From assembly GCA_964230215.1 (NCBI GenBank), contig CAXRGQ010000007.1, positions 234,863 to 298,862 of the forward strand: 64,000 bases of DNA, in the 5' to 3' direction. Positions within the stretch are counted from its first letter, which is position 1; the number at the start of each line of letters is the position of its first letter. The notes below the pieces were generated by a model that saw only the letters and a program-made list of their open reading frames with translations, had not been told where the DNA came from and searched no databases. A program made the translations under genes and the position numbers. The stretch is from Flavobacteriales bacterium. Its GTDB lineage: Bacteria; Bacteroidota; Bacteroidia; Flavobacteriales_D; JAUILH01. Positions 46,412 to 49,657 of the stretch are shown here, piece after piece.

Positions 46412-46430
46412 GGGGGTAGTTTCTTTAGCG

Positions 46431-46492
46431 CTAATGGCGATTGGCACTATAACATGTATAAGGAATAAAGTTGCTAACTTTAGTGAGACGTT
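46431..46492 (+). repeat. Leader repeat R1 copy a
   Basis: Near-identical to 47413-47476; contains CTATAAC and the palindrome TAAAGTT-GCT-AACTTTA, and ends GACGTT. Confidence 0.92.
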
Positions 46493-46582
46493 AGCCAGCA
46501 TTGAGGAACAGTCGCCTGAAAATTTTCCACAAACAAAGCAACTTTTTACTTACCTTTAGCGTTAGTATTGTAAGACGTGACT

Positions 46583-46864
46583 ATGATTAAATCTTTTGGG
46601 TCAAAGGAAACAGAAAAAGTGTGGAATGGAATTAGATCCAAAAAACTTCCTCTTGAATGCCAGAAGATTGGCCGTAGAAAGCTAAGAATGATTAACAATT
46701 CGATTGACATAAATGACCTAAGAGTGCCGCCAGCTAATAGACTTGAAAAGTTAAGCGGTAATCTAAGTGAGTTTCATTCAATCAGGATTAACAAGCAATG
46801 GCGTATTATTTTTAAGTGGAATAATGGAAACGCACATGAAGTAGAAATTATTGATTATCACTGA
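46583..46864 (+). CDS. higB: HigB-type (RelE/ParE superfamily) toxin
   Basis: MIKSF start, DLRVPPANRLEKLSG, HSIRINKQWRIIF and EIIDYH motifs; toxin-first gene order. Confidence 0.93.
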   Translation: MIKSFGSKETEKVWNGIRSKKLPLECQKIGRRKLRMINNSIDINDLRVPPANRLEKLSGNLSEFHSIRINKQWRIIFKWNNGNAHEVEIIDYH

Positions 46865-46865
46865 T

Positions 46866-47165
46866 ATGGAAAAGTTAGATAACATACACCCGGGTGAAGT
46901 TCTTCTTGAAGAGTTTATGCTTCCAATGGAAATTACAGCTTATAGATTATCTAAATCTATTAATATTCCACAAACAAGAATTAGTGAAATTCTTAAAGGC
47001 AAAAGAAGAATCACAGCAGATACGGCACTTAGGCTCGGTAAGTTTTTTGGAAATTCTGCTAAGTTTTGGCTTGGTCTTCAAGATGATTATGATCTTGAAA
47101 ATGAGAAAAACAAAAAGCAAAAAGAGTTTGACCAAATTCAGACATGGGAAAATAACGCAGCCTGA
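46866..47165 (+). CDS. higA: HigA antitoxin (HTH-XRE)
   Basis: IHPGEVLLEEF, RRITADTALRL and FWLGLQ..YDL motifs. Confidence 0.93.
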   Translation: MEKLDNIHPGEVLLEEFMLPMEITAYRLSKSINIPQTRISEILKGKRRITADTALRLGKFFGNSAKFWLGLQDDYDLENEKNKKQKEFDQIQTWENNAA

Positions 47166-47256
47166 CAACGGGTAAATCGAAAATGCCCAAGCGTCTGAAC
47201 ACACGCACTTTGTAGCCGTCATTTAATTTGTATTTTTAAACATACAACGTTAGAGA

Positions 47257-47412
47257 CACGCGTTTTATCCTGCCCCGTTAAAACCAAAATCCCCACCCCA
47301 TAAATACATTACGTTCTCAAACATTACCTTTACCTCATAGCAAAAGTGAAAAGAGCATATTTCTGTCGGAATTGTGGAGCGCAATCACCGAAATGGATGG
47401 GTAAATGCAGCA
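47257..47412 (+). repeat. Direct repeat R2 copy a: radA upstream region plus first 25 codons
   Basis: 156 bp, identical to 48213-48368 except G>A at 47339 and 47397. Confidence 0.95.
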
Positions 47413-47435
47413 CTAATGGCGATTGGCAACTATAA
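47337..47435 (+). pseudogene. radA: radA 5' fragment with dead start codon
   Basis: ATA replaces ATG; frame reads (I)AKVKRAYFCRNCGAQSPKWMGKCSTNGDWQL-stop versus intact MAKVKRAYFCRNCGAQSPKWVGKCSSCGEWD. Confidence 0.9.
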
Positions 47436-47476
47436 CATATTATAAGGAATAAAGTTGCTAACTTTAGCCAGACGTT
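47413..47476 (+). repeat. Leader repeat R1 copy b
   Basis: Near-identical to 46431-46492 (about 5 differences including two 1-nt insertions). Confidence 0.92.
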
Positions 47477-47519
47477 GTGCGCAATTGACGTAAGGAATTA
47501 AAGCAAAGCAATTATTACT

Positions 47520-47527
47520 TATTTTTG
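47520..47527 (+). promoter_or_regulatory. Bacteroidota -7 element for mntA-hepT
   Basis: TATTTTTG immediately before ATG 47532. Confidence 0.5.
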
Positions 47528-47531
47528 TATT

Positions 47532-47843
47532 ATGATTGATTTAGTGAAGAATAACGTTAAAGGATTGCAGGATATTTGCGTAAGATATAATGTAAAATCC
47601 CTTCACCTATTTGGATCGGCTGCTAAAGGTGACTTCAATTCTAACACGAGTGACCTAGACTTTGTAGTCGAATTCAATGAATCAATCGATCCAGTTGATT
47701 ACGCAGATAACTTTTTTGGTCTTCTAAATGAGCTAAAGCAGTTGTTTAAAATAGATGTGGATTTACTCTCTCAACGTGCTCTCAGAAATCCGGTTATGAT
47801 ATCAGAAATCAATAGTTCCAAGGTACAGCTCTATGCAGCATAG
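47532..47843 (+). CDS. mntA: Minimal nucleotidyltransferase antitoxin (MNT)
   Basis: LFGS-X11-DLD Pol-beta-type motif and VDLL; about 100 aa. Confidence 0.88.
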   Translation: MIDLVKNNVKGLQDICVRYNVKSLHLFGSAAKGDFNSNTSDLDFVVEFNESIDPVDYADNFFGLLNELKQLFKIDVDLLSQRALRNPVMISEINSSKVQLYAA

Positions 47844-48168
47844 CAAGATCTTCAAATATGTTCTTGATATTGAAGCGATTTTGGAGGAAATTGATTTTGT
47901 GAAAAGCAAACACCAATCTTTTGCTGAATTTGACTATGACTTTCTTGCTAAGAGAGCGATTGAACGCCATCTAGAAATTATAGGTGAAGCTGTTAAAAAC
48001 ATTAGGAAGATTGACCCAACTATTAAAATTTCATCGGTGGAACAAATCGTTAATCTGAGAAACTTAATCATCCATGCTTATGACACGGTTGACTCAGGGA
48101 TTTTATGGGGCATAATACAAAAAGACATTCCTGTTCTGAAAACGGAAATAAGTGCTTTAAGAGAATAA
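47833..48168 (+). CDS. hepT: HEPN ribonuclease toxin (DUF86/HepT-like)
   Basis: AIERHLEIIGEA and RNLIIHAY (RX4HXY) motifs; overlaps mntA. Confidence 0.9.
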   Translation: MQHSKIFKYVLDIEAILEEIDFVKSKHQSFAEFDYDFLAKRAIERHLEIIGEAVKNIRKIDPTIKISSVEQIVNLRNLIIHAYDTVDSGILWGIIQKDIPVLKTEISALRE

Positions 48169-48212
48169 CTACACACAACTAATCCGTATATTAGATAAAC
48201 TAAACGTTGGGG

Positions 48213-48368
48213 CACGCGTTTTATCCTGCCCCGTTAAAACCAAAATCCCCACCCCATAAATACATTACGTTCTCAAACATTACCTTTACCTCATGGCAAA
48301 AGTGAAAAGAGCATATTTCTGTCGGAATTGTGGAGCGCAATCACCGAAATGGGTGGGTAAATGCAGCA
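48213..48368 (+). repeat. Direct repeat R2 copy b (functional radA upstream region and 5' end)
   Basis: Matches 47257-47412 at an offset of 956 bp. Confidence 0.95.
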
Positions 48369-49657
48369 GCTGTGGCGAATGGGACACCTATCAAGAAGAA
48401 ATTCTGGAGAGCAATACAGCTAAGTCCAGCGGTGGTTATCAAAGCAGTAAAACACATCAAAGACCGCAAGCACTTGAAGAAGTGGAATCGTCAAATTTGA
48501 AACGTGTTGGGATTAAGGATACCGAACTTTCGCGTGTGTTAGGTGGTGGCATTGTGCCTGGATCCATTGTACTCTTTGGTGGGGAACCCGGAATAGGAAA
48601 GTCCACTTTGATGCTACAAATTGCCCTGCAAGAAAATAATTTAAAAGTGTTGTATGTGAGCGGTGAGGAAAGCTCTGAACAAATCAAAATGCGCGCAGAC
48701 AGAATTGATGCGGCCAACCCCAATTGTTTTGTCTTGAATGAAACCAGCACTACACTACTTTTTCAACATTGTAACGAGTTGGAGCCTGATTTACTCATCA
48801 TTGACTCTATTCAAACCATACATACACCTAAATTAGAAAGTGCGCCTGGCAGTATTTCGCAAATACGAGAATGTACGGCTGAGATTATGCGCATGGCCAA
48901 GGATAAAGGCATTCCAGTCTTTTTAATTGGACATATCACAAAAGAAGGCTCATTGGCAGGACCAAAAGTATTAGAACACATGGTAGACACGGTGCTCCAA
49001 TTTGAAGGTGACCGCAACCATGTCTACAGACTACTCAGATCGGTTAAAAACAGATTTGGGAATACGAATGAATTGGGTATTTACGAGATGTCAGGCGAGG
49101 GCTTGCGCGCAGTGGATAATCCAAGTGAACTGCTTATTTCAAATAATGACCAGGGACTAAGCGGAACAGCCATTGGTGCCACCATGGAAGGTTTACGCCC
49201 CTTATTAATTGAAGTACAAGCATTGGTGAGTTCTGCTGCATACGGCACACCACAACGTTCTAGTACAGGCTTTGACTTAAGACGTTTAAATATGCTACTT
49301 GCTGTGCTCGAGAAAAGATGTGGTTTTAAATTAGGCAGTAAAGATGTCTTCTTGAACATTGCGGGCGGAATTCGCGTGGACGATCCCGCCATTGATTTGG
49401 CCGTTGTAAGCGCTATTATGTCTTCAAATGCAGATATTCCTGTGGACACAAGCGTTTGCTTAGCCGGTGAAGTTGGCTTAAGTGGTGAAATTCGTCCAGT
49501 AACAAGAGTTGCACAGCGTATCTCTGAAGCAGAGAAGCTAGGCTACAAACAAATCATCATCTCTAAACACAATAAGGCCGTTAAAGCGCAGGATTTTAAG
49601 ATAACCGTGCACATGGTGGGTAAGATTGAGGAGTGCATTAAGTTGATGTTTGGGTAA
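48293..49657 (+). CDS. radA: DNA repair protein RadA/Sms
   Basis: C4 zinc finger, GEPGIGKST, KNRFG and Lon-like C-terminal domain. Confidence 0.97.
   Translation: MAKVKRAYFCRNCGAQSPKWVGKCSSCGEWDTYQEEILESNTAKSSGGYQSSKTHQRPQALEEVESSNLKRVGIKDTELSRVLGGGIVPGSIVLFGGEPGIGKSTLMLQIALQENNLKVLYVSGEESSEQIKMRADRIDAANPNCFVLNETSTTLLFQHCNELEPDLLIIDSIQTIHTPKLESAPGSISQIRECTAEIMRMAKDKGIPVFLIGHITKEGSLAGPKVLEHMVDTVLQFEGDRNHVYRLLRSVKNRFGNTNELGIYEMSGEGLRAVDNPSELLISNNDQGLSGTAIGATMEGLRPLLIEVQALVSSAAYGTPQRSSTGFDLRRLNMLLAVLEKRCGFKLGSKDVFLNIAGGIRVDDPAIDLAVVSAIMSSNADIPVDTSVCLAGEVGLSGEIRPVTRVAQRISEAEKLGYKQIIISKHNKAVKAQDFKITVHMVGKIEECIKLMFG

Follow-up and report, generated by a model that had tools for sequence, protein, structure and literature searches.

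Two toxin–antitoxin (TA) gene pairs (46490-48208) lie directly upstream of radA in a window of 64,000 nt from a Flavobacteriales genome (the window being the whole stretch analysed, from contig CAXRGQ010000007.1; coordinates given without a contig name refer to it). It is very probable that these TA modules are integron-type cassettes, each standing behind a copy of an attI-like site, and that they are moved by a XerA/IntI-like tyrosine recombinase without the extra domain of the integron integrase, IntI. The evidence lies in where the cassettes begin and end, in a pairing between R'' and R' boxes that runs through a whole family of attC sites, in covariation within the attC stem, in the mobility of cassettes between contexts, and in the linkage of recombinase, attI and first cassette, all of which are directly observed.

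A preliminary description of this DNA had already proposed that the modules were attC-like, integron-type cassettes in a Bacteroidota genome, and this core has held up, in the pairing of R' with R'', in the position of a stop codon at the inverse core and in a folding bias towards the bottom strand. What it had missed were the direct repeats of about 65 nt before the modules, the duplication of the 5' end of radA, and the associated recombinase. In what follows, the genome containing the window is called G000 (its contigs including C6, C7, C11 and C14); G001, G002 and G003 are relatives, G002 being the sister species, and G131 and G103 belong to other families of the same order.

Layout of the radA locus

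The features of the locus, all on the + strand, are as follows.

46427-46492, +: attI-like site, copy 1 (7-bp hairpin at 46466-46482, 7-nt spacer, crossover GTT at 46490-46492); a direct repeat of 47409-47476
46491-47277, +: cassette 1 (TT...G), consisting of higB, higA and its own attC; the same cassette is present at another locus in G002
46577-46864, +: higB (Pfam HigB-like PF05015, 75.3 bits)
46851-47165, +: higA (NCBIfam HigA TIGR02607, 105.1 bits)
47154-47279, +: attC of cassette 1, 126 nt (R'' at 47154-47166, L'', variable middle, L', R' GTT at 47277-47279; covariance model R1, 99.3 bits, E 3.6e-22)
47280-47413, +: duplicated radA upstream region and first 26 codons, near-identical to 48236-48369 (2 differences), with ATA as start codon at 47337-47339
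47409-47476, +: attI-like site, copy 2 (crossover GTT at 47474-47476); a direct repeat of copy 1
47475-48233, +: cassette 2 (TT...G), consisting of MntA-like antitoxin and HepT-like toxin genes (by family matches) and a short attC; a copy in G131 is 87% identical
47532-47843, +: MntA-like nucleotidyltransferase antitoxin (Pfam NTP_transf_2 PF01909, 43.8 bits)
47833-48168, +: HepT-like toxin, an RNase (Pfam HepT-like PF01934, 69.6 bits; stop codon at 48166-48168)
48167-48235, +: attC of cassette 2, 69 nt (R'' at 48167-48179, R' GTT at 48233-48235; covariance model 54.2 bits, only the 3' ~70 nt being well aligned)
48236-48292, +: native radA promoter region, conserved in G001, G002 and G003
48293-49657, +: intact radA (NCBIfam RadA, 594.6 bits)

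In both pairs, adjacent small genes match a toxin and an antitoxin family, of type II (HigB/HigA) in the first and of type VII (MntA/HepT) in the second, for which the NCBIfam equivalog models of MntA and HepT gave only 40 and 41 bits, under their cut-offs of 60. After each module comes a near-identical block of about 157 nt (47257-47413 and 48213-48369, with 2 differences), made up, in this order, of a conserved repeat's tail, the DNA upstream of radA and radA codons 1-26. The upstream copy of these codons has ATA instead of the start codon and reads in frame into copy 2 of the attI-like site: it is a dead radA fragment. The radA promoter region can be taken as native DNA because it is conserved in three relatives.

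The start of each cassette complements its own end

The preliminary description began from a complementarity between the two ends of each module, and direct reading of the sequence bears this out. Module 2 starts at 47474-47486 and ends at 48167-48179, overlapping the hepT stop codon, and the two stretches are complementary at 10 of 13 positions; its three mismatches all set A or C against C or A on the top strand, giving G.T on the bottom strand. For module 1, the start (46490-46502) and the end (47154-47166, overlapping the higA stop codon) are complementary at 9 of 13. Each also pairs better with its own partner than when crossed: by eye, the start of module 1 agrees with the end of module 2 at 5 of 13 positions, and the start of module 2 with the end of module 1 at 6 of 13. 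The bias towards G.T on the bottom strand, which had been claimed for both, stands for module 2 and for a conserved position in the wider family, and falls for module 1, whose four mismatches are mixed in type.

Two such short pairs would not by themselves beat chance; the family-wide pattern is far beyond it. In 15 cassettes of G000, the seven variable bases after the preceding GTT were compared with R'': pairs of own start and own R'' scored 5.6 of 7, against 2.32 of 7 in 210 non-own pairings (maximum 5 of 7), and the observed own-pair sum was reached by none of 100,000 permutations; a test against shuffled pairings had been proposed in the preliminary description. Two of the 15 rows were mis-anchored by the regular expression and scored low, their true boxes matching well in the family listing. 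The full R box proved to be 13 nt long, [A/T]AC-N7-AAC pairing with GTT-N7-AT[T/A], with 11 or 12 of the 13 positions matched in nine of the 15 rows, and the end of module 2 fits the [A/T]AC-N7-AAC form exactly. A genome-wide scan with the strict 13-nt pattern gave 17 pairs, compared with two in a reversed, non-complemented control. Of the 13 rows that were anchored correctly, 12 have C as base three of R'' opposite an A of the start, and so do other genera; this conserved top-strand mismatch becomes a G.T pair on the bottom strand.

The family as a whole conforms to RYYYAAC/GTTRRRY, in that N6-7 AAC pairs with GTT N6-7. Among the higBA cassette boxes, those of the G002 copy fit both RYYYAAC and GTTRRRY and those of the G000 copy have one point change in each, which accounts for the modest 9 of 13 of module 1 relative to the clean R box of G002; cassette 2 fits loosely.

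A family of attC-like repeats

Other such sites are present in the genome, as the proposal of cassettes demands. A profile search with nhmmer found 23 sites (E <1e-8) of an attC-like repeat of about 130 nt, and a covariance model gave 24 matches in G000. The sites make up an array of seven at the start of C6, another at C6:201-211 kb and an array of nine at the end of C7, together with a single site on C14 and the two at radA; two of the arrays run into contig ends. (Just past the last attC of the first C6 array, on the opposite strand, lies an IS110-like transposase gene, C6:5899-6885.) In the array cassettes are TA pairs of the ParE/RelE and HigB types, together with genes for small lipoprotein-like proteins. 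Such a content is typical of sedentary chromosomal integrons.

At its 5' end the repeat unit has a variable box that closes with AAC; two conserved arms, left and right, then enclose a variable middle in which there are small hairpins, and the right arm is followed by GTT, after which the sequence is variable again. RNAalifold, applied to 19 sites, found 21 pairs between the left and right arms, six of them with changes on both sides. This pairing of the arms, combined with the order of the unit, gives the layout of an attC site: R'', L'', variable structure, L', R'. The junctions that circular cassettes would have were then folded, as the preliminary description had advised, by joining each attC by its coordinates to the start of its own cassette: the bottom strand was the more stable in all 16 cassettes (mean -26.4 kcal/mol, compared with -21.2 kcal/mol for the top strand), and own junctions folded better than the junctions as found in the array (-26.4 vs -21.7 kcal/mol). 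For the own junction of cassette 2, the values were -14.2 kcal/mol (bottom strand) and -11.2 kcal/mol (top strand). Calculated foldings of this kind support folding of the bottom strand, and are not proof of it.

In a wider search, the covariance model R1 detected the family in only one of 60 relatives (G002), but this model is specific to one type of attC, and the result is a poor guide to distribution. G103 has a full-length attC of this type (C2:397845-397901, locus L163), with one T of the final GTT missing.

Cassette boundaries and movement between contexts

The preliminary description placed the crossover in the ACGTT that follows each module end, making the sites 27-83 nt long. The motif is indeed there in both cases (47248-47252 and 48204-48208), but array alignments, the covariance model and the cassette shared with the sister species all rule it out as the crossover, and put the relevant GTT 27 nt further on. 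The 3' crossover triplets are therefore 47277-47279, where the homology with G002 ends, and 48233-48235, by the same family alignment, so that the attC sites are 126 nt and 69 nt long.

That homologous TA genes elsewhere should have the same ends was a further expectation, and the higBA cassette provides the case: it occurs at an unrelated locus of G002, where the homology starts after one GTT and stops at the next. Mean column identity between the G000 and G002 versions is 91%, a figure for the entire alignment with its flanks, and the flanking DNA is unrelated. Cassette 2 has its 87% identical copy in G131, from a different family of the order.

The same picture emerges from metagenomes, in which the comparison was with assembled contigs at ≥90% likeness, perhaps from relatives, so that only presence is informative and uncovered parts say nothing. 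In X1, contigs with the same sequence as the window run across the junction of the duplication with attI copy 2; X5 and X10 contigs carry the higBA cassette in other upstream contexts, with the break at 46489; and an X10 contig covers exactly 47473-48179, and X10 shows a change of context at 47473. By the homology with G002 and these breakpoints at 46489 and 47473, the cassette boundary falls within the R' GTT, at the resolution of the triplet rather than of the exact bond. In another X10 contig, attI copy 2 is separated from the radA promoter by a different insert, of 876 nt. That contig also has a 172-nt deletion (47216-47387), by which the 3' half of attC and the start of the duplicated radA piece are gone; a 174-nt version of this deletion occurs in X5.

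The attI-like site

The direct repeats of about 65 nt before the module starts (46427-46492 and 47409-47476) have counterparts that suggest their role. On C6, this same sequence directly follows the stop codon of a gene for a 379-aa tyrosine recombinase (C6:330883-332022), and is itself followed by GTT and a cassette with a matching R''. In G002 the recombinase gene is likewise followed by GTT, next by a cassette of three genes whose R'' matches exactly over 10 nt, and then by the higBA cassette. Solo copies precede a Fic-protein cassette on C14 and an open reading frame at C6:242.7 kb. The possibility that the repeat is native intergenic or radA-derived DNA was discarded, the same sequence being present at C14, C6:242.7 kb and C6:332 kb. 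Of 19 attI sites, 14 have a perfect stem of 6-13 bp (4-5 bp in shuffled sequences) that ends 4-7 nt short of the GTT, and the stem sequences differ from taxon to taxon; a DNA search of G001-G003 with the ~65-nt repeat found nothing useful. These repeats are attI-like sites, organized as a hairpin, 4-7 nt and GTT.

At the C14 locus (C14:232125-233509, locus L024), a solo attI lies after a terminator and is followed by one cassette, which encodes a 360-aa Fic-family protein and has a somewhat degenerate attC.

A XerA-like recombinase linked to attI and first cassettes

The preliminary description had also advised looking for co-occurring tyrosine recombinases: a XerA/IntI-like enzyme is encoded next to attI and a first cassette in both G000 and G002. 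Against the integron integrase model TIGR02249 the recombinases score 195-212 bits (195-197 for the G000 proteins), under the cut-off of 265, and against NF040815 (a XerA / integron integrase model) 204-229 bits. Their best relative among solved structures is XerA (4A8E; 158.5 bits, with a colinear alignment). The alignment with VchIntIA (2A3V) falls into two blocks, residues 13-178 and 246-318, between which the recombinase has 25 residues where the integrase has 67; since this segment (2A3V 179-245) is the place of the IntI-specific domain, the recombinase evidently lacks it. Most members have about 105 extra residues at the N-terminus (residues 1-105; L012:1168-1482), which are conserved in many Bacteroidota homologues and absent from the 292-aa enzyme of G002; they match no Pfam family, and all their Atlas scores are <0.9.

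Homologues of the recombinase were found in 156 of 301 genomes of the order (E≤1e-45), as well as in records of Flavobacteriales, Cytophagales, Bacteroidales and Saprospiraceae, the closest named relative being from Crocinitomix catalasitica. For a study of linkage, 37 loci from other Bacteroidota with at least 700 nt downstream were available, and in 13 of them a strict 13-nt start/R'' pair was present, with its GTT ≤260 nt (usually 37-50 nt) from the recombinase stop codon. The controls gave one such pair in 531 upstream windows and one in 1468 opposite-strand windows (together 2/1999), a difference with a binomial p of ~3.5e-30 (related loci not being independent). Downstream windows contained a strict pair in 40 of 690 cases, as expected for arrays. 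This strict test replaced a 10-mer linkage test with a control rate of ~10%; chaining of further cassettes with one mismatch allowed was too noisy for counting arrays. An attI adjacent to a recombinase gene, with cassettes at its GTT, is seen in G000 C6, in G002 and in the 13 loci, the site being 3' of the gene, which is co-oriented with the cassettes.

Several further loci deserve mention. The region C6:330883-333431 (loci L012 and L062) has the appearance of a complete element: the recombinase and attI are followed by at least two cassettes, whose attC sites are short (~65 nt) and differ in sequence type, and a further two strict or near-strict pairs occur ~10 kb away (342952-344455). At C11:225622-227149, a contig end, there is a gene for a 406-aa paralogous recombinase, with a GTT ~230 nt past its stop codon, a typical cassette start and a lipoprotein gene cut by the contig end; this element may head one of the broken arrays. 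In a record labelled as a Campylobacteraceae metagenome-assembled genome (locus L144, 7791-10239), the cassette that comes after a recombinase homologue has exactly the start box and the R'' box of a G000/G002 cassette, which points to a misbinned contig or a cross-phylum transfer.

Which recombinase moves the cassettes?

Some observations weigh against movement of the cassettes by the XerA-like enzyme. The R box of cassette 1 is decayed, with a match at five of seven variable positions (seven of ten when the AAC triplet is counted), and the attC of cassette 2, which has a well-formed R'' and a 3' part of the common type-I kind, lacks its L'' half, so both may be no longer, or poorly, mobile. 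Recombination was not observed: neither a circular cassette nor an empty attI-radA site was present in the assembled contigs, in which rare excision products cannot show. The strict pair was absent from 24 of the 37 recombinase loci, some being on short contigs and some perhaps representing Xer paralogues. The extra domain of IntI is held to be necessary for integron activity (PMC8138268, PMC9668308). Finally, contig breaks cut off the large arrays of G000, and a canonical intI could be encoded in unassembled sequence.

This last point leads to the explanation that fares best among the alternatives, namely that a canonical IntI inserted the cassettes, and is now missing from the assembly, lost, or active in some other replicon or organism, the XerA-like recombinase having no part in the matter. 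The anatomy of the attC sites, which is fully integron-like, is what this would predict; clusters of attC without a nearby IntI are described as common (PMC4889954), and integrons of Bacteroidota figure in review literature (PMC8618304). Yet in G000, which is 98.9% complete, no canonical IntI was found, the best match to TIGR02249 reaching 111 bits per stretch against the cut-off of 265, and at E≤1e-60 the same model had no match in any of 301 genomes of the order (the control genomes were silent too, so the sensitivity of this search is unproven). An integrase with the IntI-specific additional domain, by which complete integrons are recognized, is accordingly absent from what was found. Moreover, the recombinase, attI and matching first cassette are linked in 13 of 37 loci (2 of 1999 in controls), and the homogeneity of the attC sites within G000 suggests that cassettes are formed or kept in the lineage. 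We therefore regard a canonical integrase as an unlikely source.

Much less likely is that the modules are of the Xer/dif type, like the pdif modules of Acinetobacter plasmids, with the host Xer proteins exchanging double-stranded core sites that flank TA modules. TA pairs are typical cargo of dif modules, and the associated enzyme is Xer-like, with XerA as its best solved relative. The sites themselves contradict such a scheme: they lack a dif-like core, in which a spacer of 6-8 nt would be flanked by two ~11-nt arms; a double-stranded core site would not explain why the paired boxes are cassette-specific and 40-110 nt from each other; and a folded single strand is indicated both by stem covariation and by the unequal folding of the two strands. 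Least credible of all is a family of intergenic repeats resembling repetitive extragenic palindromes (REP), miniature inverted-repeat transposable elements (MITE) or terminators, with no site-specific recombination and with ends complementary by chance, for though the repeats are intergenic, palindromic and multi-copy, and the pairs at radA reach only 9 and 10 of 13, the complementarity is cassette-specific and differs between cassettes, oriented pairs far outnumber those in the control, a cassette common to two taxa has homology ending exactly at GTTs, and Rfam holds no family matching the repeats at E≤1.

A proposed mechanism, and a proposed history of the locus

A cassette, which has an imperfect-hairpin attC at its end, opens with the TT of one GTT and closes with the G of the following one. 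When the cassette is circular, the outer R'' box of this attC ([A/T]AC-N7-AAC) pairs with the bases at the cassette's start (GTT-N7-AT[T/A]). In the mechanism proposed here, the linked XerA-like recombinase would excise cassettes as circles (attC x attC), and these would be inserted at the G|TT of attI, probably via the folded bottom strand of attC as in canonical integrons, the enzyme acting without the IntI-specific extra domain. We infer this catalysis and the strand used, like the order of events at radA, from the arrangements described above.

The radA locus, a small cluster of two units with one cassette each, has no recombinase of its own, none of the tyrosine recombinase matches of G000 being in the window. 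Its history may have started with a single cassette and its attI, some 55 nt ahead of the start codon of radA. A tandem duplication would then have copied attI, the cassette and the radA 5' end as one block, by way of a short similarity of radA codons 26-32 to the left edge of attI; at the junction site these codons do resemble that edge, and include a stretch that matches at 10 of 11 positions. The two copies would later have come to hold different cassettes, either by exchange or by recombination of two variants. Exchange that is still going on would fit the X10 contig, in which attI copy 2 has another insert. A different origin for the duplicated radA 5' end, as the att sites of an integrative element that targets radA, was dropped in view of the repeat family and the GTT boundaries.

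Beyond this locus, we suggest tentatively, and without as yet calling it probable, that there may be a widespread integron class of the Bacteroidota's own, defined by a Xer-like integrase without the extra domain and often with a novel N-terminal domain, a gene co-oriented with the cassettes, an attI of hairpin plus GTT after its stop codon, and a 13-nt R box. If so, the orphan-looking attC clusters of the phylum would be serviced by this enzyme, and folded attC sites would be recognized without a domain thought to be indispensable. The cassette system does appear to be Bacteroidota-wide. The IntegronFinder 2.0 paper (PMC9024848) gives only In0 elements and one Salinibacter integron for Bacteroidetes, and a 2024 preprint (10.1101/2024.07.02.601686) names Bacteroidota when illustrating defence systems in clades where integrons had not been found before. 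In the portions searched of the integron literature (including PMC13616975, and with supplementary tables, which may list Bacteroidota attC clusters, outside the scope), no such system was described.

The defining component of integrons has been their integrase, with an extra domain that is regarded as essential for handling folded attC DNA, and the Bacteroidota have been treated as nearly devoid of them. Should the linked XerA-like recombinase indeed move these cassettes, the integron principle would be older or more widespread than has been thought, the structural basis of hairpin recognition would need a second look, the orphan attC clusters of the phylum would be explained, and a new, compact recombination system would be available for study. 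Locally, the proposal accounts for the presence of two TA pairs and a dead copy of the radA 5' end before an essential repair gene.

Comparison with known systems

The closest likeness is to the cassettes of sedentary chromosomal integrons, for which the Vibrio repeats serve here as the example. Features held in common are bounds at G|TT, an imperfect-hairpin attC with R''/R' and L''/L' and a variable middle, an inverse core lying over the stop codon, a start that complements the cassette's own inverse core, and a preference for folding of the bottom strand; in both, repeats of about 130 nt are homogeneous in one genome, and the cargo consists of TA pairs and small proteins of no known function. 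The differences are that the R box of G000 is longer (13 nt, [A/T]AC-N7-AAC) and has the conserved C-opposite-A, and that the cassettes are found in a Flavobacteriales host without a canonical integrase.

The recombinase resembles IntI (VchIntIA, 2A3V; TIGR02249) in being a simple Xer/IntI-type tyrosine recombinase, with TIGR02249 among its best-scoring families, and in adjoining an attI at which insertion takes place at GTT. Unlike IntI, it lacks the IntI-specific insertion (25 residues in place of 67), and its gene is co-oriented with the cassettes and has attI past its stop codon, whereas in the IntI system attI is upstream of a divergent gene; in addition, most of the recombinases have the N-terminal ~105 residues of no known family, and the attI contains a hairpin.

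In the terms of IntegronFinder, the radA locus is comparable to a CALIN or SALIN (a cluster of attC sites, or a single attC site, lacking an integron-integrase): its covariance matches (47154-47283 and 48119-48239), 956 nt apart, provide the two attC sites within 4 kb, with no tyrosine recombinase match in the window, that define an attC cluster without a nearby integrase. It departs from these in that each cassette has its own copy of attI, and in that the unit was apparently multiplied by tandem duplication of host DNA and not by insertion at secondary sites. By structure, then, the cassettes are integron cassettes, and the locus is an attC cluster without an integrase that falls outside the canonical integron as defined by its integrase.

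Lastly, in its core the recombinase is most similar to archaeal XerA, as the 4A8E and NF040815 scores attest, and in this it belongs with XerA and XerC-XerD; in contrast to XerC-XerD/dif modules, the sites are not dif-like, and what they bound are oriented cassettes, each with a hairpin site specific to itself.

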